64,000 nucleotides of DNA from Escherichia phage vB_EcoM_JNE01, in the sequence record OR670491. One strand, 5' to 3'. The notes beneath the pieces are model-generated. The model had not been told where the DNA came from. It saw only the letters and a program-made list of their open reading frames with translations, and did no database searches. This document shows positions 11,586 to 54,199 of this stretch, in pieces. The stretch's first letter is position 1, and the number at the start of each line of letters is the position of its first letter. Made by a program: the position numbers and the translations under genes.

Positions 11586-11870
11586 ATGAAATCAGAAGAT
11601 ATAGAATTTACATATAGAGTTCTTTATAAAATGTATGCAAATCCAGTTGAAAATGATTTCACTTACTATGAAACACTTAGAACAATATGGATAATTTACT
11701 TACAAAATATTAAAGATTATTTCATAGGAAAACATATAACAATTAATAACATAAAATATAAATGTACTGATGTTACTAGTTATAGTGGGAAACTATCTAT
11801 TGAATTTTATCATCAAAATTCTTTTTATAGAAGATATCTTTCGGAGGTTAATTTGAATGATATTCAGTGA
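11586..11870 (+). CDS. hypothetical protein, tandem paralog family A (1/4)
   Basis: ~90 aa ORF; shares motifs (EFTYRVLY..., Y-x-G-[KR]-[IL]) with 11857, 12110, 13012. Confidence 0.5.
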   Translation: MKSEDIEFTYRVLYKMYANPVENDFTYYETLRTIWIIYLQNIKDYFIGKHITINNIKYKCTDVTSYSGKLSIEFYHQNSFYRRYLSEVNLNDIQ

Positions 11871-12129
11871 TTTACAATTCACGTATAAATGTATATTCGA
11901 TATTAAAGAGTCAGATAAATTACTTGACAATTTGTGGAGAATGTATCTAGAAGAAATACGTGAATATTTTTCGAAAGATGGTGGCTACACTATTCTTTAC
12001 AATAACGTAAAGATGGAGTACCAATACCTCCATAGTTACAATGGTAGAATTGAGGTTAGATTCTTTTCTAGTCAAATTGGTGGAAGGGACTTTATTTTGG
12101 AAGAATTAGATGAATACGAAACAGTATAA
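11857..12129 (+). CDS. hypothetical protein, tandem paralog family A (2/4)
   Basis: Overlapping start with previous gene; similar sequence pattern. Confidence 0.5.
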   Translation: MIFSDLQFTYKCIFDIKESDKLLDNLWRMYLEEIREYFSKDGGYTILYNNVKMEYQYLHSYNGRIEVRFFSSQIGGRDFILEELDEYETV

Positions 12130-12415
12130 AGACTGGCAATTCATATACAGATATTTGTACCGCCAGCACATCGATAGTATAGTTGAGAATGACGCATTTC
12201 GAATATTATGGCGTAGGGAGTTAGAAAAGCTTCGTTCACATTTCGTGGATTCTATATTCACACAAGATGGTCACATTTTCAAATGCGTTAGTGAGTACAA
12301 CATTCACTCATATGATGGTAACGTTGCTATAAGTTTTCATAAAATAACTGACGTTGATGATGGAAGAACATATACATACGAGATGACAAAATTACCGGAG
12401 AATCTTAAAACATGA
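12110..12415 (+). CDS. hypothetical protein, tandem paralog family A (3/4)
   Basis: Overlapping start; similar sequence pattern. Confidence 0.5.
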   Translation: MNTKQYKDWQFIYRYLYRQHIDSIVENDAFRILWRRELEKLRSHFVDSIFTQDGHIFKCVSEYNIHSYDGNVAISFHKITDVDDGRTYTYEMTKLPENLKT

Positions 12416-12838: not shown

Positions 12839-13015
12839 ATGAGTAATAAACTATTCTTTTTCCTATGGAGTCTGTTCTCTCTTACAGTACTGTCAATTGC
12901 AGGTGCTTATTTGTTTTTAAGCATGGATACATGGTATATCAATTTACTATGTCCATTTGTTGCAGTTGGATTTGGATTTACTTTACATAGTGTAATTAAA
13001 GACTTTAAAGAATGA
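12839..13015 (+). CDS. small membrane protein (58 aa, two hydrophobic segments)
   Basis: ATG right after upstream TAA; hydrophobic LFFFLWSLFSLTVLSIAGAYLFL; not in ORF track. Confidence 0.35.
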   Translation: MSNKLFFFLWSLFSLTVLSIAGAYLFLSMDTWYINLLCPFVAVGFGFTLHSVIKDFKE

Positions 13016-13302
13016 ATACAGAATCCAGTACTAAACTGCTACTAAAAGACATAGAATTCACTACAAAGGTTTTATATGAGTACTGGTCAGACAAAATTTT
13101 AGTTCAGTGTAATTCTGCTATGACAGATTTATATTTCAATACAGTTGATATTTTTAGAAATGAATTAATGCACAAACCTGTATTGTACAGGAATGAAGAG
13201 TACCAAATAGCTGCTGTTTCAACCAGTGCAGGAATGCTATTCTTGGATATTGAAAATTATAATTCATTTAGACCTGATGTACATTGGAAAACTTTAAGAT
13301 GA
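13012..13302 (+). CDS. hypothetical protein, paralog family A (4/4)
   Basis: DIEFTTKVLYEY motif as in 11586. Confidence 0.5.
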   Translation: MNTESSTKLLLKDIEFTTKVLYEYWSDKILVQCNSAMTDLYFNTVDIFRNELMHKPVLYRNEEYQIAAVSTSAGMLFLDIENYNSFRPDVHWKTLR

Positions 13303-14641: not shown

Positions 14642-14914
14642 ATGATAAATGATGAATTGAAGCGTGATTTATGGACGTATGATTATCTGGTTGATTTGGA
14701 TTGTGGTTGGAAATATAACTATGTAACACATGCTATACTATCTGATCACAGTATTAAGATATATAACACGTACCATAAGAAGCCAATTCATCACTATGGA
14801 ATGAATAAGTCTGGAATAATTGATGACATTGAATTTGACGTATTTGGTGTATACATACACGTTTCCTTCCTTGATGGTACACAGGGTTTATACACTATAG
14901 ATGAAATGAATTAA
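14642..14914 (+). CDS. hypothetical protein (90 aa)
   Basis: ORF; strong terminator downstream. Confidence 0.5.
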   Translation: MINDELKRDLWTYDYLVDLDCGWKYNYVTHAILSDHSIKIYNTYHKKPIHHYGMNKSGIIDDIEFDVFGVYIHVSFLDGTQGLYTIDEMN

Positions 14915-14953: not shown

Positions 14954-15643
14954 ATGATTAAAGATATAGATAAAGTACTGTTTGTACTAAAAGGTATAGT
15001 CACTTTGTATCGTGATATTACAAATATGCAATCCACCTTTGGATTAAAAGACATGGAAACTGAATATACACATTTGGAATACCTTAAATCGTCCCTATGT
15101 ACCGAGGATTCGGAGTACTCAATTCATCCAGTACTGGTAGAGCCATTTCAGGGTACTGGGTTCGGTATTTTCGATAAGAACATGGAACTAATTTCGATGT
15201 TCAGAGTTATGGACGGTCTTATCAACAGAACAGTACTATACAGTACGTGGGCTAACATAAATCCAAAATATCCAACGATTAAAGCCTTTGATGGTTCCCA
15301 AAAAGAAATAACCGTCGATGTTGATGAGAACATGACAGAGGAAGAACACTTCCAGACTTTAATGTTCAGGCAAATGCCAGAGTATAAACATATGATTGAT
15401 GCAATCAATTATACTAAAGAGATACTTCCTGCACTTGAAGTAAACAAATTCATGCACCCTGTTGATTACAATCACTTGAACTTAGATTTATCTAATACAC
15501 ACTTCTCTGAAAAGGTATTACAGTGTATTCAAAATGATACTAAGTTTGATTTCCTAAAAATACTAAAAGAAAATCCAAGAACAGATTTCTTTAAAGAATA
15601 TAATAATTCGTTCAGTACTGGCGATACTTCATGGTGGAAATAA
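14954..15643 (+). CDS. hypothetical protein (229 aa)
   Basis: Long ORF. Confidence 0.55.
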   Translation: MIKDIDKVLFVLKGIVTLYRDITNMQSTFGLKDMETEYTHLEYLKSSLCTEDSEYSIHPVLVEPFQGTGFGIFDKNMELISMFRVMDGLINRTVLYSTWANINPKYPTIKAFDGSQKEITVDVDENMTEEEHFQTLMFRQMPEYKHMIDAINYTKEILPALEVNKFMHPVDYNHLNLDLSNTHFSEKVLQCIQNDTKFDFLKILKENPRTDFFKEYNNSFSTGDTSWWK

Positions 15644-15906
15644 TGGACATACAATCTCAATTACAATTGTTAACAGTACTTGAAGATGCGGCGTTTCAGG
15701 TTGTATCAGATATAAACAAATTACTCCCACCTGGAACTAAAGTACGTGTTAGAGAGAAGAGTTATAATACTTTCGAAATAGTTGAACAGGAATTAACTGT
15801 AAAAAAAGTAACTTATTATGACTCAACATTATGTATTCAGTGCGAAGATAAAGACGAGATGTTATTGTATTATAATCAACACACAGATATAGAGGTAATA
15901 TCATGA
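15643..15906 (+). CDS. hypothetical protein, dispersed small paralog family B
   Basis: ~85 aa; shares [LV]xD...G[KT]KVR core with 19148, 19398, 22117, 23118; start 15631 or 15643. Confidence 0.45.
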   Translation: MDIQSQLQLLTVLEDAAFQVVSDINKLLPPGTKVRVREKSYNTFEIVEQELTVKKVTYYDSTLCIQCEDKDEMLLYYNQHTDIEVIS

Positions 15907-17045
15907 CACATTTACAAATATACGAAGACCTAATGCACTTGTGCAAAACAAATGAAGCATTTTTTTATGTTGATCATAAAAGTCCGGCTGGTGGTACATA
16001 CCGTGTATTCACCTATCGTCTGGCTTCTTACACAGATTTCAGTCTTCCTAATGCACTGGAAACACGTGGTTCTATGTGGGAGATTGATGAAGATGGTGAA
16101 ATGATTCGTTGTGCTTCGCGTGCAATGAAAAAGTTCTTCAATGCTTACGAGAACCCATTTACAATGTTCAGTCCAGATACAACATGCGATGATATTGCTA
16201 TCGTGATGCCTAAACTGGATGGTTCAATCATCAGTACATTTCGTGATAATGATGGTGAAATCCGTTGTAAATCACATACTTCCTTGTCATCTGACCACGC
16301 AATTAACAGTACTCGACTATTGAACGAGAACCGTAATTTGTATGATTATGTAGACGAAGCTGAACGTTTAGGTTATACTGTGAATCTGGAGTATACAAGT
16401 CCAGAGTACCGAATAGTATTACCATATCAAGTAGAACAGTTATTTGTACTTAATGTTCGTCATCGATTGAGTGGTGAGTTGTTATGCGGTGCTGCATTAC
16501 GTTCGAAGTTCCCTTGTTTAGCACAATACAGTACTAACATGACAGGTAATAACATCTGTTCATCGTTTCCGGTGCGTTCTACCTTCAAAGAAAGTGTAGA
16601 TGAAGTACGTAAAATGGTTGACATTGAAGGATTTGTGTGTATCCTAAATAATGGTACAATGTGCAAATTGAAAACTGATTGGTATTGTTCATTGCATCTT
16701 ACAAAAGACAGTATTCTTATACCGTCACATTTGTACGAAACTGTACTCAATGATGCCAGTGATGACCTGAAACAATTGTTCAGTACTGATGAATATGCAA
16801 TGCAGTTGATATTAAAAATGGAACAGCGTGTCTTTTCATGCTATAATGCTTTACAAGATGAAGTAGAGAGCTTCGTCCAACAATACAAGCACTTGGAGCG
16901 AAAGGAATTCGCAATGAAGGTTCAGGAATGTCTTAAGAATGAACTGAACCGTCAGGGCTTGGCCTTTGCGTTGTACAACGGTAAAGTGGTGAATTATAAA
17001 GAAACTTTATTGAAGTACTACAAAGATGTACTAAAGGATTTTTAG
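15903..17045 (+). CDS. rnlA: RNA ligase 1 (T4 Rnl1-like)
   Basis: N-terminal FFY...SPAGGTYRVFTYRLASYTDF...ALETRG and ligase motif I KLDGS align with T4 Rnl1 as recalled. Confidence 0.85.
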   Translation: MTHLQIYEDLMHLCKTNEAFFYVDHKSPAGGTYRVFTYRLASYTDFSLPNALETRGSMWEIDEDGEMIRCASRAMKKFFNAYENPFTMFSPDTTCDDIAIVMPKLDGSIISTFRDNDGEIRCKSHTSLSSDHAINSTRLLNENRNLYDYVDEAERLGYTVNLEYTSPEYRIVLPYQVEQLFVLNVRHRLSGELLCGAALRSKFPCLAQYSTNMTGNNICSSFPVRSTFKESVDEVRKMVDIEGFVCILNNGTMCKLKTDWYCSLHLTKDSILIPSHLYETVLNDASDDLKQLFSTDEYAMQLILKMEQRVFSCYNALQDEVESFVQQYKHLERKEFAMKVQECLKNELNRQGLAFALYNGKVVNYKETLLKYYKDVLKDF

Positions 17046-17074
17046 TACTAACTAGCCTAGCACAAGGAGAAGTG

Positions 17075-17329
17075 ATGGCTAAACCTAAGTATAAAAATGA
17101 CGGTTCCCTTTCTCCGACCGAGTTCAGGAAAATACAACAAGATATCGATGAATTACAGCACAAACGCTCAAAGAAAGGTGTGAAGATTAGTAAGAAAAGA
17201 ATCGAGAATACTTTTGGGTGTAGTAGTACTGAATACAAGAAGAAGAGGAAACCAAAAGACGTGAAACCGAGAATACATGATGTGTCTCGACATACGTCTA
17301 AACGTGAAAACAAATTCGATCCACTATAA
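17075..17329 (+). CDS. small lysine-rich basic protein
   Basis: ORF after AAGGAG; K/R-rich. Confidence 0.45.
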   Translation: MAKPKYKNDGSLSPTEFRKIQQDIDELQHKRSKKGVKISKKRIENTFGCSSTEYKKKRKPKDVKPRIHDVSRHTSKRENKFDPL

Positions 17330-17338
17330 GGAGTTCAT

Positions 17339-17569
17339 ATGAAAGTTGAAGTTCAGCATAGTATTGTACAAGATATGTCCGTTGTGAAATTTCTATCATT
17401 GAAAGATTATTTCAGATGCATCAAGTTCCTAGAAGAATCGAAACTACAGTGGACACCGTTGAAGTACAGTTCATCCAATGATACAGCCAGTATTCGTTGT
17501 GATGAATCTGTGCTTGTGAAAATCTCTAAGAGATTTGGGGTAGGTAAAGTTAATGAGCACAGTAAGTGA
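17339..17569 (+). CDS. hypothetical protein (76 aa)
   Basis: ORF after AAGGAG. Confidence 0.45.
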   Translation: MKVEVQHSIVQDMSVVKFLSLKDYFRCIKFLEESKLQWTPLKYSSSNDTASIRCDESVLVKISKRFGVGKVNEHSK

Positions 17570-17807
17570 TCTAAAATACTACAACAAAACTGCGGATACG
17601 TTTATTACTCATTTATATGAAGAATTTAGTCGTATCCGCACGGAATATACAGGTAAATGTATTTTTTATTGTTCTTATCATAGTGGCGAAATTGAACGTG
17701 CTTACATTACTAAAGTGAAGTTCAGTGATGACTATCAATTACTCTTTGAATTAGATAATTGTTTCGTTATTGAAGCTAGTTTGATAATGGATGTACTGGA
17801 TAATTGA
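17553..17807 (+). CDS. hypothetical protein (84 aa)
   Basis: ORF. Confidence 0.45.
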   Translation: MSTVSDLKYYNKTADTFITHLYEEFSRIRTEYTGKCIFYCSYHSGEIERAYITKVKFSDDYQLLFELDNCFVIEASLIMDVLDN

Positions 17808-17813
17808 GGACAT

Positions 17814-18128
17814 ATGAATAAAGAACTTGCACATGAAGGTATCGAAAAGTTAAAGTACATTGAAAGGGAACTAATAGAATCCGTCGAATCTTTGATAGAA
17901 GATTACGTTTTCGATTTTAAGAAAACATTGATTGGATGTAAAGTAAAATGCTGGGATCATACAATCAGAGAATGGTTCAGTACTATTATTCTTGATGTTA
18001 AAGTATCTCGTACTGCTATTGGTAACTTAGTAAATGGTGAATGCTTTGTATACACTGAATACAATAACGGAACACGTCACCTTTCAAGAGGATGGCACAG
18101 ACTCGAAGATGTAAAATTTATCGAGTAA
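17814..18128 (+). CDS. hypothetical protein (104 aa)
   Basis: ORF. Confidence 0.45.
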   Translation: MNKELAHEGIEKLKYIERELIESVESLIEDYVFDFKKTLIGCKVKCWDHTIREWFSTIILDVKVSRTAIGNLVNGECFVYTEYNNGTRHLSRGWHRLEDVKFIE

Positions 18129-18140
18129 TAAGGAGTAATA

Positions 18141-19085
18141 ATGCCGACTATTACATTAACAGTTGGTTTGCCAGGATGTGGTAAAACTACATGGGCTGTT
18201 GAAGCAATTCGAAAAGCAAAGTCAAAGACTGTCAATATCAACCGTGATGACATTCGTGAGTCAATGGCTGGTTCACATGATGCATACAAATTCAACGACG
18301 CTAATGAGCAGTACGTAACTACATTACAGTTCAGTGCAGCCGATTTAGCAGCTAAGAATTCGTGGAACATCATCGTTTCTGACACGAACCTTAAACAAGG
18401 TTTTCGTGATAAATGGAAAATGTGGGCTTCAGACAATGGGTACGACTACAAAGAAAAAGACTTCTATCAGGATTTTGAACCTAAAGAAGACCGTGGTGCT
18501 GATGTACATGAATTCTTTAAGATTAAAGAATATGTAAAACTTTGTAAGACTCGTAACCTAAAACGCGAACGTTCAGTACAGGACAGTATCATTGATACTA
18601 TGGCACATACGTACTATTACAGTAAAATGCGTATGTTCAATGCGTATGAGCTTCAGAATTATGACTCATTACCGCATTGTATTATTGTTGATATCGATGG
18701 TACACTAGCTCATAAAGGGGGTCGTAATCCATTCGATGAAAGTACTGTCCTACAGGATACTCCAGACGAGGAAGTAATTCTTTCAGTAATTGCAGAAGCA
18801 CAGTTCTTTAAACGCAAGATTATCGTTATGTCCGGCAGGACTGAAGGGTGCAGAGAAGATACTGAGAAGTGGTTACTGACTTGGGGTGTGCCTTATGATG
18901 AACTATATATGCGAGCAATTGATGATAAACGTCCTGATGATGTAGTTAAGTACGAGTTACTATCTAAACACGTTGCTGGGAAGTACACGGTCAAGAAGGT
19001 TTATGATGACCGTGAGGCAGTAACATTTATGTGGCGTAACCTAGTAGGATTGAAAGTATTCCAAGTCGAACCTGGATTATTTTGA
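18141..19085 (+). CDS. pseT: polynucleotide 5'-kinase/3'-phosphatase (T4 Pnk-like)
   Basis: Walker A GLPGCGKTT, NINRDD, HAD motif IVDIDGTLA; overall pattern like T4 PseT. Confidence 0.85.
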   Translation: MPTITLTVGLPGCGKTTWAVEAIRKAKSKTVNINRDDIRESMAGSHDAYKFNDANEQYVTTLQFSAADLAAKNSWNIIVSDTNLKQGFRDKWKMWASDNGYDYKEKDFYQDFEPKEDRGADVHEFFKIKEYVKLCKTRNLKRERSVQDSIIDTMAHTYYYSKMRMFNAYELQNYDSLPHCIIVDIDGTLAHKGGRNPFDESTVLQDTPDEEVILSVIAEAQFFKRKIIVMSGRTEGCREDTEKWLLTWGVPYDELYMRAIDDKRPDDVVKYELLSKHVAGKYTVKKVYDDREAVTFMWRNLVGLKVFQVEPGLF

Positions 19086-19098
19086 TACAATAAAATAT

Positions 19099-19130
19099 AT
19101 GAGCGGATCATTTGATTCCGCTCATTTTTA
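19099..19130 (+). terminator. rho-independent terminator
   Basis: ATGAGCGGA...TCCGCTCAT stem then TTTT. Confidence 0.65.
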
Positions 19131-19147
19131 TCTAAGGATAAAGTACT

Positions 19148-19405
19148 ATGGATATGTTACAAGTGCAATTAAAACAAAGTACTGACTTGATACTTTCTAT
19201 TATTGAAGATCTAAATCAACAGTACTTAGGAAAACGTGTCATAACTCATACAAAGATTAAAGGGTTTGTTTCGTTAATTTATTTTAATTCATATGAAAAT
19301 AAACTATGCGTTCGAATTAGAACCATAGATGAAGAAACTGGGTATGAGGATGGTGGATTAGCATCTATACCTTTTCAAAATTTAAGGTTATTAGAAGATG
19401 ATTAA
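19148..19405 (+). CDS. hypothetical protein, paralog family B
   Basis: ...EDLNQQYLGKRV...; related to 19398. Confidence 0.5.
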   Translation: MDMLQVQLKQSTDLILSIIEDLNQQYLGKRVITHTKIKGFVSLIYFNSYENKLCVRIRTIDEETGYEDGGLASIPFQNLRLLEDD

Positions 19406-19649
19406 AACAGAATTAGCATTAGTAAAACTGCATGTAGACTACGCAACAGTACTCGTAGAAGATCTATCAAAAAAGTACGTTGGTAAACGTGTGCGTTGCT
19501 ATTATAGTGAATATGATTATAAACATGATTTCCGTGTACAAGAGATTTTTCTGTTCGACGGGGTTATTAATATTCGTGTAATCAATGAACATAACCATAC
19601 CTATACATATGGCCTAAATGCAACTATAGAGGAATTGCCAGATGAATAG
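19398..19649 (+). CDS. hypothetical protein, paralog family B
   Basis: ...EDLSKKYVGKRVR... Confidence 0.5.
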   Translation: MIKTELALVKLHVDYATVLVEDLSKKYVGKRVRCYYSEYDYKHDFRVQEIFLFDGVINIRVINEHNHTYTYGLNATIEELPDE

Positions 19650-19938
19650 TGTTTTGTCAAAATTAAAAGAATTGAATTTCTATACTTACCTGTGGCTTGA
19701 TGAACAGGAACAGGTTGTAAGCAGATCTTATTCCCATATAATGATTGAGTTATCAAAGGATATACTAAAAACAGAAGTAAAAGTATTTTGTCCAGAAGCT
19801 AATATGGGTGGGAAGATTGTTGATTTTACTTTCGCTGGATTTATCAACTATAATTACGAACGTTCACTTGGTATTAAGGTTGAAATTGGGGAAGACGATT
19901 ATTGTACCTTTCAGTTGCCCGATTTGGTGATACAATGA
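19642..19938 (+). CDS. hypothetical protein (98 aa)
   Basis: ORF. Confidence 0.45.
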   Translation: MNSVLSKLKELNFYTYLWLDEQEQVVSRSYSHIMIELSKDILKTEVKVFCPEANMGGKIVDFTFAGFINYNYERSLGIKVEIGEDDYCTFQLPDLVIQ

Positions 19939-20234
19939 ATGAGGAAGATTTAAGAATATTAACCTACTATAGTAATCATTCGATAATTTTATATGAGATG
20001 GTTTATGAATACAAATACAGCGAGTATCCTTTATTTGATTTAGTACTGAATTTTTATAACGAAGTACGTGACAAATATTACGGTAAACCCATTGTAATAT
20101 TAGATGATACATTTTATATAGCAGCAGTGCATGGTTCATTAAATGGTATATTCTTTGATTTGAAATCGGATCTTAAATCAAAACATGTTGATGATAGTTT
20201 GTATATTTCGGAGATACCAAAATGTCAAATTTAA
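19935..20234 (+). CDS. hypothetical protein (~99 aa)
   Basis: ATGA overlap start chosen (track start 19902). Confidence 0.45.
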   Translation: MNEEDLRILTYYSNHSIILYEMVYEYKYSEYPLFDLVLNFYNEVRDKYYGKPIVILDDTFYIAAVHGSLNGIFFDLKSDLKSKHVDDSLYISEIPKCQI

Positions 20235-20548
20235 CAGAAGAAGATTTAAAGTATCTTCTGTACGTAGAAAAATCTACCATATTAATTTCGTCGGTTTGTG
20301 AAGAGTTTGACGATACCAGATGGAAAGGATGTGTGCCAACATACATCTTCGACACTATGGAAATATTGGAAAATAAGTTCTATAATAAATTAGTATATGA
20401 AAAGGAATATCCTAAAGTCAAACTTTATATTAAAGAATGCTTTTTCGCTGGACGCAGTGGTTTTATGTTTGATACAGGACGAAACGAAAAAGAAAAGTAC
20501 ACTTTTACTAGTGTTTATCTTGATGAGATTTTGTTAGCAAAAGATTGA
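20222..20548 (+). CDS. hypothetical protein (108 aa)
   Basis: ORF. Confidence 0.45.
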   Translation: MSNLTEEDLKYLLYVEKSTILISSVCEEFDDTRWKGCVPTYIFDTMEILENKFYNKLVYEKEYPKVKLYIKECFFAGRSGFMFDTGRNEKEKYTFTSVYLDEILLAKD

Positions 20549-20571
20549 CATTGAACTGGAATTGAACTATA

Positions 20572-20886
20572 ATGGACGAACTATTAAAAGAAATACTACA
20601 ATGGGAAAAGGATTTTGTTTTCATCAGTGAACAAAGAAACAATGCACCAAAGAGTGTTCGATCTGCCATTGAGTACTACATTGATGAAATGTGTGAATAC
20701 CTGACTAAAAAGTACTGTCCATTTAGTTCAGGATATTCCACCAACAGTTTTGTAACCAAACGAGATGTAGGTGAAATTCATATTGTAAAACGCATCACAC
20801 CTGGATTTGGTAACTGGTTTGTATTCAATACTGAACAATCTGAATACCTATACATCGAAGATTTAAGAAATATTATCAAAAAATAA
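20572..20886 (+). CDS. hypothetical protein (104 aa)
   Basis: ORF. Confidence 0.45.
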   Translation: MDELLKEILQWEKDFVFISEQRNNAPKSVRSAIEYYIDEMCEYLTKKYCPFSSGYSTNSFVTKRDVGEIHIVKRITPGFGNWFVFNTEQSEYLYIEDLRNIIKK

Positions 20887-20897
20887 GGAGAGTACAT

Positions 20898-21518
20898 ATG
20901 TTAACAACACTAGCAATTATTTGGGTTCTTGGTGTAATCATCACTGCTATGCTTGCATACAATCACAATCGCAATATCATTGGGTATTCTGTACTCGGTG
21001 TAGTACTGTCACCTGTGATTTCAATCGGTGTTCTCCTAATGCTAGGTGAACGCAACCCCAATCTATTCATCAATGACAACCGTGATAAGGTTACACCAGT
21101 ACCAGAAACTGTTATTCCTGAAGAACTAGCACCTGCACCGGAAGTTGTTGAAGTAATAGAAGAAGTCGTGGAACCTGTCAAACCAGTACCGCCAGTATTC
21201 CCTGAAGTGCAGGTTGTTCCTGAAGTTAAAAAGCATAAGTCCAATAAGTCCTCAAAGAAAGCACGATATACTAAAGGCAAGAACAAAGGTAAGAAACCAG
21301 ATACCCAAAGCACTTCCACTTCCACCACAACCACCACCAATACCCCTGATAACGCAGCAGGCATCGCTACAGCAGCCGTAATGACTGCCCTGTACGTTGG
21401 TGACGATTACAGTGATTACACCACTACAACGACGTATAGCTCGTCCTCTGACACTTCTTCATATGACAGTTCCAGTTCATGTGATAGCAGCAGTTCTTCT
21501 TCTGGTAGTTGTGATTAA
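20898..21518 (+). CDS. membrane protein with Pro/Val/Glu-rich linker and Ser/Thr-rich tail
   Basis: Two N-terminal hydrophobic segments; low-complexity PEVVEVIEEVVEPVKPVPP and T/S runs. Confidence 0.5.
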   Translation: MLTTLAIIWVLGVIITAMLAYNHNRNIIGYSVLGVVLSPVISIGVLLMLGERNPNLFINDNRDKVTPVPETVIPEELAPAPEVVEVIEEVVEPVKPVPPVFPEVQVVPEVKKHKSNKSSKKARYTKGKNKGKKPDTQSTSTSTTTTTNTPDNAAGIATAAVMTALYVGDDYSDYTTTTTYSSSSDTSSYDSSSSCDSSSSSSGSCD

Positions 21519-21519
21519 T

Positions 21520-21885
21520 ATGAAAGACCTGAAATACGTTTCAATGTATTACGAGGTACTCACTAATCAAATCCTAGAATACATCGATTCGGTCAGAAAG
21601 GATCTTACGGGTAAAACCGTAAGATTCACCGACGAATACATTGAACAACAGAACAGGGTTGAATCTTATACCTTCATTGATGACGATGGTACAATTTTTG
21701 AAGATGCAGAGGATATCACACATATCAGTACTGATATTAAGATGGAAGTCATTACTATTGTTAGTAAGAACACAACCAGACTATACGCAGTAGTTGAATG
21801 TCTATCATGTCCAGATGACACTGTGTATGATTTTGACCAATACATAGATCTTAAAAATTTAGTACTTATGGGAGTGGAGGAATAA
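21520..21885 (+). CDS. hypothetical protein (~121 aa)
   Basis: ATG just after upstream TAA; track start 21397 is an overlap-frame extension. Confidence 0.5.
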   Translation: MKDLKYVSMYYEVLTNQILEYIDSVRKDLTGKTVRFTDEYIEQQNRVESYTFIDDDGTIFEDAEDITHISTDIKMEVITIVSKNTTRLYAVVECLSCPDDTVYDFDQYIDLKNLVLMGVEE

Positions 21886-21887
21886 TT

Positions 21888-22124
21888 ATGATGACATTTT
21901 TTGGAATTTATGGTTTCGTTGCTATATGTTCATTTGTATGCAACTTTATAGTACTAAATTGGGGTTGTTTCAAAGATGAACTAATCACCATAATTAGTCT
22001 ACAATCCGCAGCACTTATGGCTATTATATGGCCTGTAACATTGGTATATCTTCTTATCTCATTGGTGCGAGATGTAAAAGATAAGTACGTTAAGAACTCT
22101 AAAAAAGGTGAGAAACATGACTAA
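21888..22124 (+). CDS. small membrane protein (78 aa, 2 TM)
   Basis: Hydrophobic segments; GGAGTGGAGG upstream. Confidence 0.5.
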   Translation: MMTFFGIYGFVAICSFVCNFIVLNWGCFKDELITIISLQSAALMAIIWPVTLVYLLISLVRDVKDKYVKNSKKGEKHD

Positions 22125-22374
22125 TGTAGATAAATCTCATATTCGTTATTTGTTTTCTTTAGTTGATGATTTCTTACAAGATATCAAGCCCAAGTACATT
22201 GGGAAAGAAGTCCGTTTGACACATACCAGAGGTTACTATAAACATATCATTGAAGATGTTATTCTTCGTAAGGGTGAGTTGTGCTTTAAAGTTTGCAATT
22301 ACCTTGAAGATGGTACGTATGCTGGTTCTCAAATGGTACATGATGATAAGATTATTTGGATGAATATTGAATGA
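22117..22374 (+). CDS. hypothetical protein, paralog family B
   Basis: ...DDFLQDIKPKYIGKEVR...; ATG 22117 after AAGGTGAG. Confidence 0.5.
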   Translation: MTNVDKSHIRYLFSLVDDFLQDIKPKYIGKEVRLTHTRGYYKHIIEDVILRKGELCFKVCNYLEDGTYAGSQMVHDDKIIWMNIE

Positions 22375-23114
22375 AACATTTTTTAGAAGTAACTGTTCCA
22401 GATGATAAAGAACTATATATTGTAGGCGACATTCATGGTAATGCTAAACTATGGGATATAACTAAAACAGAATTTGGCATTACTTCTGATGATTATGTTT
22501 TTAGCTTAGGTGATCTAATAGACCGAGGAACTCAAAGTGCTAAGTTACTTTTTGAGTTCCTTTTTTCTGATAACCGTTTTATGATTCTCGGCAATCATGA
22601 ACAGCTATGTGTTGATTCAGAAAAGTACAGAGACTGGCATCACTGTTGGTTATCGAATGGTGGAGATAAGTTCATCGAGGAAATCGGTGATACTGGTATT
22701 CAGTTCTTTAGACAGTACTTAAATCAGTTGCCTACAATCATCCAAATCAATCACAGAGGTCTGAAGATTGGACTCGTTCATGCTGGTGTTGATCTGAAGT
22801 ATCAAAACTGGGATCAGTTTATTTCTGGAACAAAGTCGCTTAGTACTGATATAATTGAGTCATTGCTATGGGAACGTAAGACATTTGATTTCTGCAAAGG
22901 AAACAATGTATACAATGCACCACGCATTCAGGGTGTTGACTACGTTCTTAGTGGTCATACTGGTGTGGTTGACCCATTGATTTATGGCAATCGCGTATGG
23001 ATAGACAGTCAATTCATGAGTGGTGATTTAACCGTTGCCACCCCACAAAGTGGCAAGATGCGTTACTTGCGTCGAGAAAAGGACGATTATTCTTTTAATC
23101 GTTTTAAAAGGTAA
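22371..23114 (+). CDS. Ser/Thr protein phosphatase (PPP family, lambda-PPase/ApaH-like)
   Basis: Motifs GDIHG, GDLIDRG, GNHE. Confidence 0.75.
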   Translation: MKHFLEVTVPDDKELYIVGDIHGNAKLWDITKTEFGITSDDYVFSLGDLIDRGTQSAKLLFEFLFSDNRFMILGNHEQLCVDSEKYRDWHHCWLSNGGDKFIEEIGDTGIQFFRQYLNQLPTIIQINHRGLKIGLVHAGVDLKYQNWDQFISGTKSLSTDIIESLLWERKTFDFCKGNNVYNAPRIQGVDYVLSGHTGVVDPLIYGNRVWIDSQFMSGDLTVATPQSGKMRYLRREKDDYSFNRFKR

Positions 23115-23117
23115 ATT

Positions 23118-23381
23118 ATGCACGAAGAGATACAACAAATCATCAAAACTCGCATCAATTTTGAAAGTACAGTTTCGTCGATGGTCCATGATTATCGAAA
23201 CGATGTTCAAGCGTATCTATCTGACAAAGTTGTTGGGAAACGTGTGTGGTTTGAAGACATGTACCCAGAAGGTATTATCACGCGTATTGTAACAATGGGT
23301 ACAAACACTATATACGTAGAAATACAGTACAGTGGAAATAGATTATATCAAACGGATATTAAGTACGTTACGTTTTTATAA
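23118..23381 (+). CDS. hypothetical protein, paralog family B
   Basis: ...YLSDKVVGKRVW... Confidence 0.5.
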   Translation: MHEEIQQIIKTRINFESTVSSMVHDYRNDVQAYLSDKVVGKRVWFEDMYPEGIITRIVTMGTNTIYVEIQYSGNRLYQTDIKYVTFL

Positions 23382-23391
23382 GGAAATAAAA

Positions 23392-23619
23392 ATGAAAGAA
23401 ATTCTGGTCCAAGTAAAGAAATATCAAACTGAAGATGGTAAGATTTTTGATTCAGCCCGTGAAGCAGAACACCATGAACGTATCATTTGTGGGGTAAGAA
23501 AGACATGTCCACATTGTAATGGTACACAGCAAGTTCCTGATGAAGAATTTCGTCGTTTCTATGCGTGTCCAACATGTGATGGTCGCGGATGGGTAGAAAA
23601 ACAAGAGGTATGGAAATGA
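23392..23619 (+). CDS. small zinc-finger protein (DnaJ-type CxxCxGxG repeats)
   Basis: CPHCNGTQ ... CPTCDGRGW. Confidence 0.45.
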   Translation: MKEILVQVKKYQTEDGKIFDSAREAEHHERIICGVRKTCPHCNGTQQVPDEEFRRFYACPTCDGRGWVEKQEVWK

Positions 23620-48156: not shown

Positions 48157-50856
48157 ATGTCAAAGAAAATATATGGTGGCTTAGATGTCACACATAATGT
48201 TACAGTGAAAGGGAAACGTACTGTTCAAGGTATCAATGATCAAGTTTTTGATTCCAATGGTAACATGGAACTTGATACTTATACTAAAGAAGAAATTCTT
48301 GACGTAATTAGTATGATGCCTTTGTCACATTATGGTACACATAACTATCTACCTGCTGGTGTAAGTGGTGACTTCAACGGAGCATCAGAAAACACATCAC
48401 AGCGTAGAAACAAAATTCTATTAGAAGATGACGGAACATTAGTAATGTTGCGTGCTGGTACAAACGGTAGTGTGGAAGGTCTATTCTACTCTTACCTAGC
48501 GAACGCATTAACTATTGAAGATATGGGTCGTACCGTGAATACTGGTAAGCAGTATCAACCAGGGTTTTTGGGTTCCACAAAAGTTGCTTTCGGTTTATAT
48601 AACACTGATAGTAATATAATGATTGGTCAATATAAAGATACAACTAATAGCACTACTGGTTATTTTGTATCTATTACAAACAATACACTTGATGATACTC
48701 AGCACTCAGGATTTATCATTAATCAGTACACTGACCTTTCACCACAAGGTAACATTGAATATGCAATGATGGCAGAAGATGGTTCAATCTATGTGTTTAG
48801 TTTAGATGTTGCAGATAATAAAATGCACATGATTGTACAGCGTATTGTGTTTAATATTAGTGCTGGTACATACACTACATCACGTATATCTGGATGGACT
48901 ACAAAAACATTCTACAATACAACTATCAGTGCTAATACTAATATAGTATTAACCAACAGAACTTATTCAACTGATATTGTAGATAAACCATATGCTCTTG
49001 TACCAACTAACCTACGTGGTATTGGTATATACATGACTTCATATGATTTATATGTTGCACAACAGCCTGGTACTCAGAACTTCCGTTTCCGTTTAAATGG
49101 GGACTTATGGGCGACAATGGCAGACTATAATACACGTCCACAACATAGTTTTAGTTTCAATTTCAATATGAGTACTAAACAATGTACGTTAGATACTGGC
49201 AATGACATTGGTTCATTCCAAGCACCTATCGTTATTACAAATACTGGGACTCAATTAGTTGCTACTGGTAATGCTCTAAACAAAGATGATTTTTATAACC
49301 ACAGTGGTGCACGTAACATTTATAGTGGATATTACTATTCAGTAGAAGGTGTTGCTTTCTGTACAATATGTCCAAACCTAGCAGAACCATTACACATGGA
49401 AAAAGGTCATTACCCAGCACAATCTGTTTATAGCATGATAAATGTTAGAGCAGTGAGTTGTACAGATTTTCGTGATGGAAGAGTTGGTCCGACATTTGGT
49501 TCAGCAGTAGGGTCATATATCAACGGTGTTGAATTGTTACCTGATAACAGTACTAAACAGTTCTCTCGTGCTTCCGGTACAGGTTCTTACCAACCATCAT
49601 ATGCAGTGCATAAGAGTACTCCTAACTTTACGTTCAAATCACTTTCAATGGGGACTATTCAGGGTTATGAGCCAACAGCAGAACGTGCAAACGTAGCTGA
49701 TACGACCAACAACCGAGTATTCATTAGTTCAATTTCAGGAAGTACAGTTACAACTAATGGTGGTGTACTAATATGTGGTCAACGTTACTCACAGTCGTTA
49801 TCATATGATAAGTACATGAATGGTACTAACGTAATTAGTGTTACTCAATCAGTACTTGACAACTTCAGAACAGCAGAGTATGCTAAAGTTGCTAGTTCAT
49901 GGAACCTATCAAGTGCATCGGGTAAAGACATGTCGTTGTTTGTTCCACAGCAATCTGACATTCCAGCGTTTGTGTTTCTCAGTTCAGTGACGAACAATAA
50001 CCAGAACTATATTCGTGTTGCAGAAGTTAATGTTAATACAAGAGTAGGGAACATTACTAGTATTACATTTAAACGTTTAGTTTATGAAAACGTTCATGGT
50101 GATAACTTCGTTTCGAATACATCAGGTTCATTCTCTTCTTCATCTGTTGGTATGACAATTTATGATGGTGGTTCATTCTATTTCTTAGGTGGTTCTGATC
50201 CATTAACACATAATACTATCGGTAACACAAATACACATATGTTCCGTGCTTATGTTACTAAATCCACTGCAACTATTGATAGCTTCATTATTGCGGGTGG
50301 TCACGCCAGTTATGAACAAGGTGCTCAACCAGCAGCGTTGCCTGGATTGGGTTTTGGTATTTTTGCTGCAATTGACTATTCTAACAAAATGACATTCGTA
50401 CCTTTTGGAACAACTATTGCTGATTATAACGCATGGACACAGAAAGCGACTGCAATAAACTTAGTATCACAAGACGTTGCACAAGGTTTTATCGTGTACT
50501 TCACCGAAGAAACACCAGTAATACTATCAGGTAAATCATTTACTCTACCTATTTCGAATATTGATTTAACAACTGTAAAAGCTAATCCAGCCAATACGAC
50601 GTTTTATCTTTATATTAAAATGGAGCAAGGTAATGTTAAATACCACATAACTACTGAAGTTATTTCAGAAGCTGGTACTTCTGCATATAACGTATTTTGG
50701 ATTGGAACAATTAAAACTAACTCTCTTCAAATTGAAACAGTAAATGTTGAAAAACGTTCTCGTTTGGATATATTTGGTGCATCACTAGAAGCAGCAGGTT
50801 CTTCATTCCCAGTAAGTTATGGTTTACCATCACAAACAGGAACTATCAACTGGTAA
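48157..50856 (+). CDS. putative tail fibre/receptor-binding protein, paralog 1 (899 aa)
   Basis: Large Ser/Thr/Gly/Asn-rich protein; N- and C-terminal blocks shared with 50869 and 51473. Confidence 0.4.
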   Translation: MSKKIYGGLDVTHNVTVKGKRTVQGINDQVFDSNGNMELDTYTKEEILDVISMMPLSHYGTHNYLPAGVSGDFNGASENTSQRRNKILLEDDGTLVMLRAGTNGSVEGLFYSYLANALTIEDMGRTVNTGKQYQPGFLGSTKVAFGLYNTDSNIMIGQYKDTTNSTTGYFVSITNNTLDDTQHSGFIINQYTDLSPQGNIEYAMMAEDGSIYVFSLDVADNKMHMIVQRIVFNISAGTYTTSRISGWTTKTFYNTTISANTNIVLTNRTYSTDIVDKPYALVPTNLRGIGIYMTSYDLYVAQQPGTQNFRFRLNGDLWATMADYNTRPQHSFSFNFNMSTKQCTLDTGNDIGSFQAPIVITNTGTQLVATGNALNKDDFYNHSGARNIYSGYYYSVEGVAFCTICPNLAEPLHMEKGHYPAQSVYSMINVRAVSCTDFRDGRVGPTFGSAVGSYINGVELLPDNSTKQFSRASGTGSYQPSYAVHKSTPNFTFKSLSMGTIQGYEPTAERANVADTTNNRVFISSISGSTVTTNGGVLICGQRYSQSLSYDKYMNGTNVISVTQSVLDNFRTAEYAKVASSWNLSSASGKDMSLFVPQQSDIPAFVFLSSVTNNNQNYIRVAEVNVNTRVGNITSITFKRLVYENVHGDNFVSNTSGSFSSSSVGMTIYDGGSFYFLGGSDPLTHNTIGNTNTHMFRAYVTKSTATIDSFIIAGGHASYEQGAQPAALPGLGFGIFAAIDYSNKMTFVPFGTTIADYNAWTQKATAINLVSQDVAQGFIVYFTEETPVILSGKSFTLPISNIDLTTVKANPANTTFYLYIKMEQGNVKYHITTEVISEAGTSAYNVFWIGTIKTNSLQIETVNVEKRSRLDIFGASLEAAGSSFPVSYGLPSQTGTINW

Positions 50857-50868
50857 GGGATTACAATT

Positions 50869-51456
50869 ATGGCTTATATTATAAGATCAGATATTGAAGC
50901 AATGACAACAATTAAGTCCAGGGGATTAGACACTGGACTTTCATTAACAGACATTGATGACGTATCTTATTCAACTGATGTTAACGGGGAATGTACGTTC
51001 CCTGTATTAACCTCAGATGAAATCGACTACATTATGAATGGTTTACCACTGTCACAGTACGGTGAACTATATGATTCAACCAGTCTAGGTGTTACATTTT
51101 CTGGTTATGATTTGAAATTTGGACGAATTGTTCCGGCGTTTATTGGTGGACATTTATATGATTACCCAGTCAGTACTGTTAAAGCTAAAACAGTAACGTC
51201 AGGTACACACACACAATATGTGTATGCTACGTTAGTACTGGGTGTACCATTATATGAAATTTCAGCGACCGCCATTGCTGAAACACAAATTCAAATGTTC
51301 ATTGGTACAATAACAGTTGGTACAGCAGGAATAACAGCAGCAAACATAGAACGCGTTTCAAGGTTCAGTACATATAGACCTAGTACTACTCAGAAAGGTT
51401 CGTCCTTCCCAGTCAGTACAGGAAATCCGGCACAAACTGGTTCTATAGGCTGGTAA
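50869..51456 (+). CDS. short paralog of the tail-fibre-like family (195 aa)
   Basis: Contains only the shared N-terminal (LPLSQYGE) and C-terminal (RFSTYRPSTTQKGSSFPVSTGNPAQTGSIGW) blocks. Confidence 0.4.
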   Translation: MAYIIRSDIEAMTTIKSRGLDTGLSLTDIDDVSYSTDVNGECTFPVLTSDEIDYIMNGLPLSQYGELYDSTSLGVTFSGYDLKFGRIVPAFIGGHLYDYPVSTVKAKTVTSGTHTQYVYATLVLGVPLYEISATAIAETQIQMFIGTITVGTAGITAANIERVSRFSTYRPSTTQKGSSFPVSTGNPAQTGSIGW

Positions 51457-51472: not shown

Positions 51473-54199
51473 ATGTCATCACAAAGAATTATTGGTAACG
51501 CCAGTATATTAGGCAACTTGGCAATTGCTGGAAAAAATGCAATGCGTACTTTTAATGGAGTCTCACCAGACTCCAATACTGGTATTGTCGATTACCCAAT
51601 ATACAAACGTTCAGAAGTACAGAAAATTCTTGATATGATGCCTATTTCGCGTATAGGGGAGATGGACTATCTCCCTTTGAACGTAAATGGTTCATATGAA
51701 GGTGCAACTTCAAACTCAGCTACATATCGTATTCAGCCAACTATCATTGAAGATGATGGTACTGGTGTAGTAATACGTGCAGGCACAAACGGAAGTAAAA
51801 ATGGTTACTATTACTCGTTTATACGAGATTTAAGAAACATTACTTCTTTTACTCAGGATATGGTTATATCAACTACAACTGAATATAAACCATCTATTCT
51901 AAGTACTGGTGAAAATATTATTCGTTTCATCGGCACAAATGGTTATGAACTTTTAGTTTCATATACCTCCGGCTCTAATTATGTTTTCACATTAACAAAC
52001 GGTACATTCAACGAAGTATCACATATTCATGCTAAGTTAGCTGAATCAAGATTCGGTACTGACAAACCATTATATGCTCATGTGGTTGGTTCGAATATTT
52101 TTGTTTGGTGCAAAGACACCACGGTAGCAAACGGTGGATTAGCATATACATTGTATACAGTTTCCAGAAGTAATATAGTTGATGGTACTATGACTTCTTT
52201 TGCTAAAGTGACTGGTTTTTCTGGTCAAACAGTAAGGAATACAAACTATAGTGCATCAAATAATATTAGAGTTTTTGACCGTTACTGGTCTACAACTACT
52301 GGTACTGATTCACTATATGATATTGTTAGTCCAGTGAACAGTGTTGAATATATTGATTATAATGATTATAATATCCAAGCAAATGCCAGTACTGACAACT
52401 CTAAAATACGAGTTACTTTATACATAACTCCACGTTTCAAGACTCCATTAGCAATTTCAACTGTTCAGCCAACTGGTATTAGTTTTGTTTATAATATTAG
52501 TTCAAAGGTTATGACATTAGATGGGTCAGCAAGAGCACCAGCAACAGCAGCATACACTAATAATAATTTTGTTGTTACCAACCCATTCTCAATTTCAATG
52601 AGTAACTTTACTGGTTCAACTAATAGTTCATCTTCATTAGGTGACTGCGGTTCAATCTGTCAAACATCAGATGGTCTTGTTTTTACATCAAAATCAAGAT
52701 GGATATCAGATGAAACCTATGGTTTACAACTATATAAAGTACAAGGTACTCCATACGATAGTTGGGTCGCTAGTACTCGTAAGTCCAGTGATTTAACTAA
52801 CGTAAATGTTAAACCAACATATGGTTCTGCTGTAGGGGAAAACTTACTTGGTGTTAGATTTATTGATAAAAGAAAAGTACTTCTTGCATGTTCCAGTACT
52901 AGCGATGGTGTTACTTATGGCTATGACAGTACTGTATCCTCTGATATAGGAGACTCTCCAGTATACACATATAATAGTGTTGTAACTGGGTCTACAATTG
53001 AAGGTTTTGCTCCTGAAGCTGGACGTGAATATCATGGAAATAGTTATGATTATACCGCTATGGTTTCTTTGATTGCGGCTGATGGAACAGTAAAAACATA
53101 TGGTTCTTCATTTATAGAAGGAATAGCCAAAGATGCAAATGGATTATTAGATCCAGATACAATGACATTCTCAGGAAAATACACAATGAGTAATACTGCT
53201 TTGATGAATCTCAAACAATCGATCATTGATAGTGCAGATATTACTGGGACCAGTACTTCTAGGATTTGTTTTTATTATGTACCTGATAATACATTCTCAA
53301 GATCTATGGCAGTTGTTTGTACATACAATCCAACTAACAACCAAGGTTATGCTATTTTTGCAGAAGTAAATGCTGTTCTAAGTGGTTCAGAAATTACAAG
53401 TGCATCAGTATATACAACCAGATATGAAGTACTTGGTAGTATATCAGGAATCCAAAGTAATGCTCTAATGAAGCGTTGTACTGGATTAACAGTTGCAAAA
53501 TACTCTGGATTCAATTATCTTGGTATTGATACTATCCATCAGTTCACAGTTCCTGGTGATGTTAGTCAGAAAATGATGATAGCTAAAGTTAAAAATGGTG
53601 ATATCAGTACTAACCGTTATTTTACAACCTATCATGTTAGCAACGGTTCAGCTTTCCAGAGTGGTGCTATCCCTGGTGGTGGATTCGGTTATTATAACTT
53701 CAGTAATTCCGACTTACAGACAAAAGCAGTTCTTTCAGTATTCGGGACAACAGAAGCCCAGATGGATGGTTTGATTGCTGGTACTGGTGCAGTACTGAAC
53801 AATTATGTTGTAGTTTCTCAAGATGTAGCTGCTGGTTTCAACGTGTACTTCACCCGTGAAGTTCCGGTGTTCCTTGCTGGTATGTTCGACCGTCTGGTAG
53901 TTCAGACACTTGACCTAACAACCATCAAGAGTAATCCAGCTAACAGTACTTTCTACATTTACATAGAAATGAACCGAAGTACTGGTAAGGCTTCTTATGT
54001 TGTGAGTACTATACTCCTTGATGAAACGTTGACACGAGCCTTCATAGGAACTATAATTACTGGTGCTACTAACATATCATCAATTGAAACAGAAAAAGTG
54101 ACAAGGTTCTTGACCTATCGCCCAAGTACAACAAAACGTGGTTCTGCAATCCCGTCTAGTACTGGCGTACCGTCAGGCACTGGTACACGTTGGAAATAA
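51473..54199 (+). CDS. putative tail fibre/receptor-binding protein, paralog 2 (908 aa)
   Basis: Shared termini with 48157; divergent centre. Confidence 0.4.
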   Translation: MSSQRIIGNASILGNLAIAGKNAMRTFNGVSPDSNTGIVDYPIYKRSEVQKILDMMPISRIGEMDYLPLNVNGSYEGATSNSATYRIQPTIIEDDGTGVVIRAGTNGSKNGYYYSFIRDLRNITSFTQDMVISTTTEYKPSILSTGENIIRFIGTNGYELLVSYTSGSNYVFTLTNGTFNEVSHIHAKLAESRFGTDKPLYAHVVGSNIFVWCKDTTVANGGLAYTLYTVSRSNIVDGTMTSFAKVTGFSGQTVRNTNYSASNNIRVFDRYWSTTTGTDSLYDIVSPVNSVEYIDYNDYNIQANASTDNSKIRVTLYITPRFKTPLAISTVQPTGISFVYNISSKVMTLDGSARAPATAAYTNNNFVVTNPFSISMSNFTGSTNSSSSLGDCGSICQTSDGLVFTSKSRWISDETYGLQLYKVQGTPYDSWVASTRKSSDLTNVNVKPTYGSAVGENLLGVRFIDKRKVLLACSSTSDGVTYGYDSTVSSDIGDSPVYTYNSVVTGSTIEGFAPEAGREYHGNSYDYTAMVSLIAADGTVKTYGSSFIEGIAKDANGLLDPDTMTFSGKYTMSNTALMNLKQSIIDSADITGTSTSRICFYYVPDNTFSRSMAVVCTYNPTNNQGYAIFAEVNAVLSGSEITSASVYTTRYEVLGSISGIQSNALMKRCTGLTVAKYSGFNYLGIDTIHQFTVPGDVSQKMMIAKVKNGDISTNRYFTTYHVSNGSAFQSGAIPGGGFGYYNFSNSDLQTKAVLSVFGTTEAQMDGLIAGTGAVLNNYVVVSQDVAAGFNVYFTREVPVFLAGMFDRLVVQTLDLTTIKSNPANSTFYIYIEMNRSTGKASYVVSTILLDETLTRAFIGTIITGATNISSIETEKVTRFLTYRPSTTKRGSAIPSSTGVPSGTGTRWK

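Follow-up and report, generated by a model that had tools for sequence, protein, structure and literature searches.

Hyperplastic regions of small early open reading frames (ORFs) were reportedly described in T4-superfamily phages by Comeau et al. 2007. In such regions, a conserved enzyme backbone is interspersed with slots of small, fast-turnover genes that lie behind sigma-70-type promoters. We observed the same arrangement in a 64,000-nucleotide stretch of Escherichia phage vB_EcoM_JNE01 (record OR670491; hereafter, the window), with the difference that here many of the slot genes appear to come from a single fold family. To our knowledge, such an origin of the slot genes is not a described feature of the T4 regions. 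The genes in question had drawn attention through an original prediction in which five of them (A to E below), encoding proteins of ~85 amino acids (aa) and scattered over 8 kb, were taken to share a central motif and to reflect the repeated duplication and dispersal of one small domain. On the evidence of profile comparisons, ~14–15 small genes (83–121 aa) form one superfamily, larger than the five listed, and two of its members are predicted to fold as a helix followed by a small β-barrel. We hold this description of homology and fold with high confidence.

As judged from its sequence, the phage is an Asteriusvirus-type, Rak2-like jumbo coliphage. The 121Q/PBECO4 group constitutes the genus Asteriusvirus, which comprises jumbo myoviruses of ~350 kb. 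The region at 15–24 kb of the window shows 95% nucleotide identity to Escherichia phage Turkey5 across 98% of its length, and the same region is ~83% identical to the 121Q/PBECO4 group in the conserved parts, to which that identity is restricted. Coding in the window lies almost wholly on the plus strand, with a GC content of ~35%. In Asteriusvirus, some 83% of the genes carry the annotation "hypothetical" (PMC7247149).

Relatedness of the small genes

The five listed genes are as follows.

Gene A: 15643..15906, plus strand, 87 aa; directly upstream of, and overlapping, the RNA ligase gene
Gene B: 19148..19405, plus strand, 85 aa, YLGKRV; core member, with an 8-nt overlap with C
Gene C: 19398..19649, plus strand, 83 aa, YVGKRV; core member
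Gene D: 22117..22374, plus strand, 85 aa, YIGKEV; core member, modelled
Gene E: 23118..23381, plus strand, 87 aa, VVGKRV; probable distant member

All five begin with ATG where they had been placed, encode 83–87 aa and contain the quoted motif strings verbatim. An AAGG/AAGGT-type ribosome-binding site lies upstream of four of the five (B, C, D and E), and the start of A is found four codons inside an overlapping ORF. The annotation of Turkey5 has the same five genes with the same starts, and syntenic orthologues are present in all four divergent genomes (121Q, ph0011, Turkey3 and EC.P1; CMSTMSU was left out of the comparison, its assembly being riddled with frameshifts). The ratio of nonsynonymous to synonymous substitution rates (dN/dS) against Turkey5 was 0–0.4 in four of the genes and 0.96 in D, the latter on just 10 substitutions. 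Because of the syntenic orthologues and the low dN/dS, A to E can be regarded as genuine coding genes, and the five ORFs were thus confirmed.

Among the window proteins, the motif [YV][LIV]GK[RE]V was confined to B, C, D and E, the other 110 lacking it. With shuffled residues, the expected count was 0.01 against the four observed, and 0 of 1000 shuffles reached four, so that the motif held up against shuffled controls for these genes. The claim did not hold for A, whose LLPPGTKVRVR (PPGTKV) does not fit the pattern; its GTKV fits just the very loose G[KT][RKE]V, which also matches four unrelated window proteins.

Full-length similarity was significant among B, C and D. Smith-Waterman z-scores against shuffles were 9–10.7 for C–D, 6.8–7.4 for B–C and 5–5.8 for B–D, phmmer gave 2e-05 for C against D, and hhalign on the orthologue alignments gave probabilities of 87% (B–D), 77% (C–D) and 53% (B–C). 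Similarly, the profiles of the three genes matched one another reciprocally above every decoy. The B/C/D profile, a hidden Markov model (HMM) of these three genes and their orthologues, was searched in all ORFs of five genomes together with 10-fold shuffled decoys, and ORF 19902–20234, ORF 17814–18128 and gene E outranked all 3,570 decoys, the best of which reached 10.5 bits. Gene E scored 12.5 bits in this search, and hhalign aligned it to the B/C/D profile in register over the motif with a probability of 57%, an expect value of 1e-4 and a z of 7.6 against column shuffles (reached by 0 of 40); its Smith-Waterman pairs gave z ≤2. By these sequence comparisons, B, C, D and 17814 are clearly a homologous core, and E is a probable distant member.

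Furthermore, the searches placed at least nine further small genes of the same superfamily in the window, including the following.

11586–11870: plus strand, 94 aa, FIGKHI; first of three tandem paralogues that make up a second sub-cluster
11857–12129: plus strand, 90 aa; second tandem paralogue
12110–12415: plus strand, 101 aa; third tandem paralogue
13012..13302: plus strand, 96 aa; bridge between the 11586 cluster and 19935, extended profile z 3.8
14642..14914: plus strand, 90 aa; possible member, extended profile z 4.4, Turkey3 orthologue 17.0 bits against a decoy of 11.0
17553..17807: plus strand, 84 aa, YTGKCI; probable member, 18.8–20.3 bits against a decoy of 11.0 (extended profile), hhalign z 6.6
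17814..18128: plus strand, 104 aa, LIGCKV; hhalign to B/C/D 89%, z 15, with reciprocal above-decoy matches with D
19935..20234 (ORF 19902–20234): plus strand, 99 aa, YYGKPI; probable member, hhalign to B/C/D z 5.5, 12.8–16.1 bits against a decoy of 10.5
20222..20548: plus strand, 108 aa; paralogue of 19935 and tied to the family through it, extended profile z 3.8
21520..21885 (labelled 21397 in the profile searches): plus strand, 121 aa, LTGKTV, with an acidic insertion; probable member, hhalign to B/C/D z 8.0

The candidates align in register through the helix, an [aromatic]-x-G-K-x-[VI] core and the strands. The three tandem paralogues had mutual hhalign probabilities of 98.7–99.8%, and 11586 reached a z of 7.4 against the extended profile, its Turkey5 orthologue scoring 15.8 bits (decoy 11.0). 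Gene 20222 matched ORF 19902–20234 with a Smith-Waterman z of 10.2 and reciprocal profile scores of 13.5 and 17.2 bits, and the profile of 21397 itself reached D at 12.4 bits (decoy 10.8). When the HMM of each orthologue group was run against a decoy-spiked set, the above-decoy matches formed a network: 11586, 11857, 12110 and 13012 were interlinked, as were D, C, B and 17814; 13012 matched both 11586 and 19902 in both directions, and 19902 and 20222 matched each other; and one-way matches led from 19902 to D, from 21397 to D, from 17553 to 21397, and from E to C and to 20572. In the same set, 16 unrelated small-gene profiles gave zero above-decoy matches. Against the B/C/D profile, seven of eight small-gene control profiles stayed at z ≤0.4, the eighth being 14642 (z 2.4), which was later recognized as a possible member, and against the extended profile the negative controls stayed at z ≤1.2. 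Two genes inside the array, 19642–19938 and 20572–20886, were considered as members and set aside as not convincingly linked (z ≤2.4).

These results support the duplication proposed for the listed genes and indicate that their number was put too low. The bridge formed by 13012 and 19902, together with the match of 11586 to the extended profile, makes the 11586 cluster (probably the "family A" of the original prediction) and the family of the five genes look like one superfamily. Across the remaining 50 kb of the window, no encoded protein scored above the decoys, and the picture of dispersal over 8 kb was therefore misleading: the genes form one local array at 11.5–23.4 kb, broken by conserved genes for RNA ligase 1 (Rnl1), polynucleotide kinase-phosphatase (PNKP) and a phosphatase. 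Overlaps of a few bases join B to C, C to 19642, 19642 to 19935 and 19935 to 20222, as in tightly packed operons.

Does gene A belong to this array by descent or only by position? Its direct scores are weak. The B/C/D profile gave 6.4 bits, which is noise beside the best decoy of 10.5 (hmmsearch, five genomes); hhalign to that profile gave a z of 3.0 (range 2.7–3.0) and a probability of 1.8%; and the direct scores were still weak after three profile iterations. The Smith-Waterman z for A–C was 3.9. The link to the family runs instead through Klebsiella phage RaK2, which retains the same enzyme backbone and in which ORF463 (90 aa) lies directly upstream of rnlA and overlaps it, the same placement as that of A. 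With 30-fold decoys, ORF463 was matched by the A profile at 22.2 bits (best decoy 8.8), the 17814 profile at 19.4 bits (9.2), the extended family profile without A at 18.9–19.8 bits (11–13) and the E profile at 12.5 bits (11.6). The alignments were in register; those with the profiles of A and 17814 and with the extended profile spanned ~60–80 residues, and that with E was the weakest. When ORF463 was added to the A profile, the comparison with the B/C/D profile scored 20.4 over 72 columns with a z of 4.2 (0 of 60 shuffles reached it; range with ORF463, 4.2–4.7). From these sequence matches, the distant membership of A is possible to probable by way of ORF463, and not by way of the quoted motif. 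That one small domain was duplicated repeatedly is supported: B, C and D are demonstrable paralogues, and E and, more weakly, A are distant relatives.

RaK2 ORF473, ORF467 and ORF471 also scored above the decoys, the last marginally (12.5 against 11.0), and ORF456 and ORF469 were each matched by one sub-cluster profile. Given these relatives in the corresponding zone of the RaK2 genome, the superfamily is older than the split between Asteriusvirus and Alcyoneusvirus. In Salmonella phage PHA46, the enzyme backbone is kept, and the sequence profiles detected no member.

On a narrower reading, only B, C, D and 17814 would be related, and E, A and the others would share a common helix-plus-barrel architecture and a Gly-Lys-x-Val by convergence or chance. 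This reading leaves unexplained the in-register match of E, the silence of the negative-control profiles, the independent matches of three profiles (A, 17814 and extended) to RaK2 ORF463 at 19–22 bits, and the confinement of all candidates to a single 12-kb stretch. We therefore consider the narrower reading unlikely.

Predicted fold and database likenesses

Modelling with AlphaFold2 covered two members, D and A, from multiple sequence alignments (MSAs) of window paralogues and four database sequences. The D model (10-row MSA) reached a mean predicted local distance difference test (pLDDT) score of 79 and a predicted template modelling (pTM) score of 0.64, with a helix at residues 6–27 and strands at 31–36, 39–51, 54–60, 66–69, 73–76 and 79–83. 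The A model (pLDDT 88.9, pTM 0.70) has a helix at 3–27 and strands at 33–39, 46–59, 62–68, 74–78 and 82–85. Both proteins are thus predicted to combine an N-terminal helix of ~22–25 residues with a five- to six-stranded small β-barrel of the SH3/Tudor/PRC/Sm class. Structure prediction, which had been proposed as a check on the family, therefore returned the same helix-and-barrel architecture twice; the agreement of A counts for less, because its MSA is made of its putative window paralogues and the model is not independent evidence. The conserved glycine, G29 in the D model and G31 in the A model, follows the helix by two to four residues and precedes strand 1 by two. Since the motif falls on the helix end, the turn and the first strand of the predicted fold, Y-x-G-K-x-V probably marks the helix C-cap, glycine turn and strand-1 junction, and would be a folding signature rather than a shared target-binding site.

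In structural comparisons, the D model scored 6.6 against the RimM PRC barrel, 5.3–5.6 against PRC-barrel proteins, 5.1 against CdvA, 4.5–4.7 against CarD, Tudor and chromo domains, 4.6 against Gemin7 and ~4 against Hfq-like proteins. The A model scored 7.9 against bL19, 7.5 against the BirA C-terminal domain, 7.4 against the 53BP1 Tudor domain, 6.6 against Gemin7, 6.3–6.6 against the PcrA/UvrD Tudor domain, 6.3 against NusG KOW and 6.1 against CarD. For these models, the scores do not separate the SH3, Tudor, PRC and Sm classes. A Foldseek search of BFVD returned weak matches alone (all E-values ≥0.01), among them another 121Q protein, five RaK2 proteins of 90–99 aa and T4-type MotB-like proteins (0.025–0.13).

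Each of the known barrel families differs from the phage proteins in some respect. The PRC barrel, or RimM C-terminal domain (PDB 3h9n, 7cq1, 8onw and 3htr), shares 10–20% sequence identity with them and, in RimM, binds the ribosomal protein uS19, whereas the phage proteins are free-standing (~85 aa), have a long N-terminal helix and do not match Pfam PRC (PF05239). The Tudor-like RNA polymerase binders (CarD, Mfd RID and UvrD/PcrA Tudor) and the eukaryotic Tudor and chromo domains showed no sequence-level match, including in a test against CarD_TRCF_RID, and the N-terminal helix of the phage proteins is foreign to all of them. The Sm/LSm proteins (Hfq, Gemin6/7) and bL19 gave no match to Pfam LSM, Hfq or bL19; the phage helix is about twice the length of that in Sm proteins, and the phage proteins are acidic. 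The KOW domains (NusG/Spt5/uL24 and the N-terminal domain of T4 MotB) likewise gave no Pfam KOW match.

Single orthologue groups are already catalogued in PHROGs as separate tiny families: A in phrog_28139 (E-value 5e-27), B in phrog_29519 (5e-05), C in phrog_33398 (8e-21), D in phrog_37322 (8e-29), E in phrog_38615 (3e-08) and 17814 in phrog_31355 (2e-54). PHROGs holds no record of the relationship between these families, of the fold or of the array organization reported here. When C, the B/C/D alignment and A were used as queries in a word-indexed search of 5.8 billion proteins, near-identical sequences only were returned. The B/C/D profile, run exhaustively with HMMER over 1.84 billion representatives, recovered Asteriusvirus orthologue groups alone, apart from a repetitive 2,652-aa protein that we regard as spurious. 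A scan of IMG/VR with D gave one locus; the contig is unrelated, its composition differs visibly, and under the match no ORF of ≥55 aa is listed, so this was also judged spurious. A profile search of the PDB gave eL26 at an E-value of 1.3, which is not significant.

Divergence of the array and its neighbourhood

The backbone genes near the array were assigned by Pfam as follows.

15903–17045: T4-type RNA ligase 1 (Rnl1)
18141–19085: polynucleotide kinase-phosphatase (PNKP)
22371–23114: calcineurin-like phosphatase (metallophosphatase)
23392–23619: DnaJ-type zinc-finger protein, 75 aa, below the gathering score

A weak PTH2 match and an ATP-dependent DNA ligase are also among the Pfam-assigned neighbours. 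Compared with 121Q, the enzymes are 74–93% identical, whereas the family is mostly 22–57% identical or undetectable: A 57%, D 54%, C 40%, 21397 38%, E and 20222 31% each, the 11586 cluster ~30–36% and B 22%, with no detectable 121Q orthologue of 13012 or 19902. Two members, 17553 and 17814, retain 90% and 92% identity to 121Q; in Turkey3, 17814 is just 33% identical and 17553 is missing. Orthologues of C were found in Asteriusvirus only, at 36–40% identity. Orthologues of all five listed genes occupy the same slots in 121Q, ph0011, Turkey3 and EC.P1, and the duplications are therefore older than the Asteriusvirus radiation.

Synonymous divergence (dS) from Turkey5 was 0.44 in E, 1.48 in 21888–22124 and 0.32 in the RNA ligase gene, compared with ~0.02–0.15 in their neighbours. 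Because these values exceed those of the neighbours, the sequence suggests mosaic replacement by recombination in an otherwise 95%-identical genome pair. The array may have arisen through local tandem duplication followed by fast divergence, with some allelic replacement by recombination among its genes.

Several neighbouring genes differ in character from the family. The 23392–23619 protein matches the CxxCxGxG DnaJ-type zinc finger and Anti-TRAP-like proteins at sub-gathering E-values of 2e-06 and 1e-05 and keeps 75% identity with 121Q, in contrast to the adjoining gene E. Between the RNA ligase gene and family members, 17072–17329 and 17339–17569 encode small, strongly basic proteins (isoelectric points (pI) 10.2 and 9.2) that are 93–99% identical to those of 121Q, in contrast to the acidic, fast-evolving family nearby. 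The 206-aa protein encoded at 20898–21518, in the middle of the array, is hydrophobic in its N-terminal region, where two transmembrane segments are likely. Its central part is rich in Pro, Glu and Val, its long low-complexity tail is rich in Ser, Thr and Asp, and it has no Pfam match. Far downstream, 48157–50856 and 51473–54199 encode large paralogues of 899 and 908 aa (blastp E-value 2e-61 over the full length), and the 195-aa ORF between them (50869–51456) matches their C-terminal ~120 residues (4e-13 and 9e-18); the large pair are possibly duplicated fibre or structural genes.

Possible roles of the array

Could the small barrels serve as a set of binding modules directed at the host? As an explanation of the whole, we favour, with some reserve, a diverging superfamily array whose products act as binders. 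The functional step taken separately is more doubtful: the products may tentatively be seen as non-structural, probably early, small binding proteins, each for a different host or phage macromolecule. They would be acidic, cytoplasmic and non-virion, perhaps expressed early from host-type promoters; the barrel surface would provide a small binding module whose partner, most likely a protein, differs from paralogue to paralogue; and the array would constitute a host-takeover or counter-defence repertoire in the plastic region of the phage. The binder role is proposed because hypervariable slots are set in a conserved enzyme backbone, because Tudor, SH3 and PRC domains commonly bind proteins, and because Rnl1 and PNKP are neighbours. 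In T4, the Rnl1/PNKP module repairs tRNA cleaved by host anticodon nucleases.

Perfect TTGACA-17-TATAAT promoters occur in the window at 10163, 20545 and 54029, and near-perfect sites number 9 against 1.8 expected. Between the PNKP stop and B, ~20 nt before the ribosome-binding site of B, there is a terminator-like hairpin at 19101–19130 (GAGCGGATCATTTGATTCCGCTC then ATTTTTAT), which was not listed by a simple terminator scan. A literature search for Asteriusvirus transcriptomics yielded nothing usable.

Several observations weigh against this functional reading. Pfam, NCBIfam and PDB sequence searches found nothing significant for the family, and the PHROGs matches are all labelled "unknown function". 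Positive selection is not evident from the dN/dS values against Turkey5, although the substitutions are too few for such a test. Only consensus promoter matches suggest that expression may be early, and looser sigma-70-like sites are not enriched at 10–26 kb (56 against 74 expected). Furthermore, the −10 hexamer of the 20545 promoter (20545–20573) overlaps the ATG of 20572–20886 (TATAATG), so that a transcript from this promoter would begin inside that gene, and either the annotated start of 20572 or the role of the promoter is doubtful.

A bolder form of the binder reading, which we regard as improbable, is that of a single-fold repertoire: one scaffold was duplicated ~15 times and rapidly diversified, and each paralogue neutralizes or redirects a different host factor. 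The targets may then include the defence nucleases that Rnl1 and PNKP also counter, or components of the RNA polymerase or ribosome.

Alternatively, the proteins might be nucleic-acid-binding barrels (Sm/Hfq-, KOW- or PRC/RimM-like) that act on RNA, tRNA or ribosomes together with the RNA ligase, PNKP and peptidyl-tRNA hydrolase encoded next to them. The family has a pI of 4.4–6.9 and a net charge of −0.2 to −8.4, and this acidic to neutral character sets it apart from typical binders of RNA or DNA and speaks against generic nucleic-acid binding. Pfam LSM, KOW and PRC were not matched even at E-values ≤1, the BFVD matches were no stronger than the level given above, and hypervariability between close phages is ill-suited to conserved RNA targets. 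We consider this alternative unlikely.

The proteins could also form part of the large virion or help to assemble it, for example as internal head proteins, decoration proteins or chaperones, given that jumbo phages have many uncharacterized virion proteins and that a ClpP-like head protease gene lies ~5 kb downstream in the window. This is very improbable. The phAPEC6 orthologues gp377, gp373, gp370, gp363 and gp361 are not among the 62 virion proteins identified by mass spectrometry (PMC7247149), the genes sit amid nucleic-acid enzyme genes and outside the structural module, and extreme sequence turnover is atypical of structural components. Finally, chance or compositional similarity with no gene family at all, for which a 35% GC genome with many small K/I/N/Y-rich ORFs and individual pairwise identities of just 20–33% might be adduced, is negligible in view of the motif count in B, C, D and E, for which shuffled controls refute it, the Smith-Waterman z of up to 10.7, the reciprocal profile matches above composition-matched decoys and the retention of the similarity across the orthologue sets of five genomes.

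With the binder reading preferred at the strength given, the finding reveals no new mechanism, since binders built on small β-barrels are familiar, as are small early proteins from multigene families. What is new is the sequence family, so far unannotated; its fold class is well known, and so is the kind of phage plastic region in which it lies. About 15 neighbouring "hypothetical proteins" per genome collapse into one superfamily with a predicted fold, and this family is the fast-evolving part of an otherwise conserved RNA-repair/DNA-enzyme region common to RaK2. The analysis also flags unannotated members: phAPEC6 (MK817115, ~273337–273597, minus strand) carries an intact 86-aa B orthologue (MDKFHTDITQ...YLGRNV...) in the unannotated gap between gp371c and gp370c. 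For jumbo coliphages considered for therapy, the array provides a small, concrete candidate set for host-takeover and anti-defence screens. If the single-fold repertoire were true, the array would be a counter-defence island that gives Rak2-like jumbo phages a natural library of diversified scaffolds.

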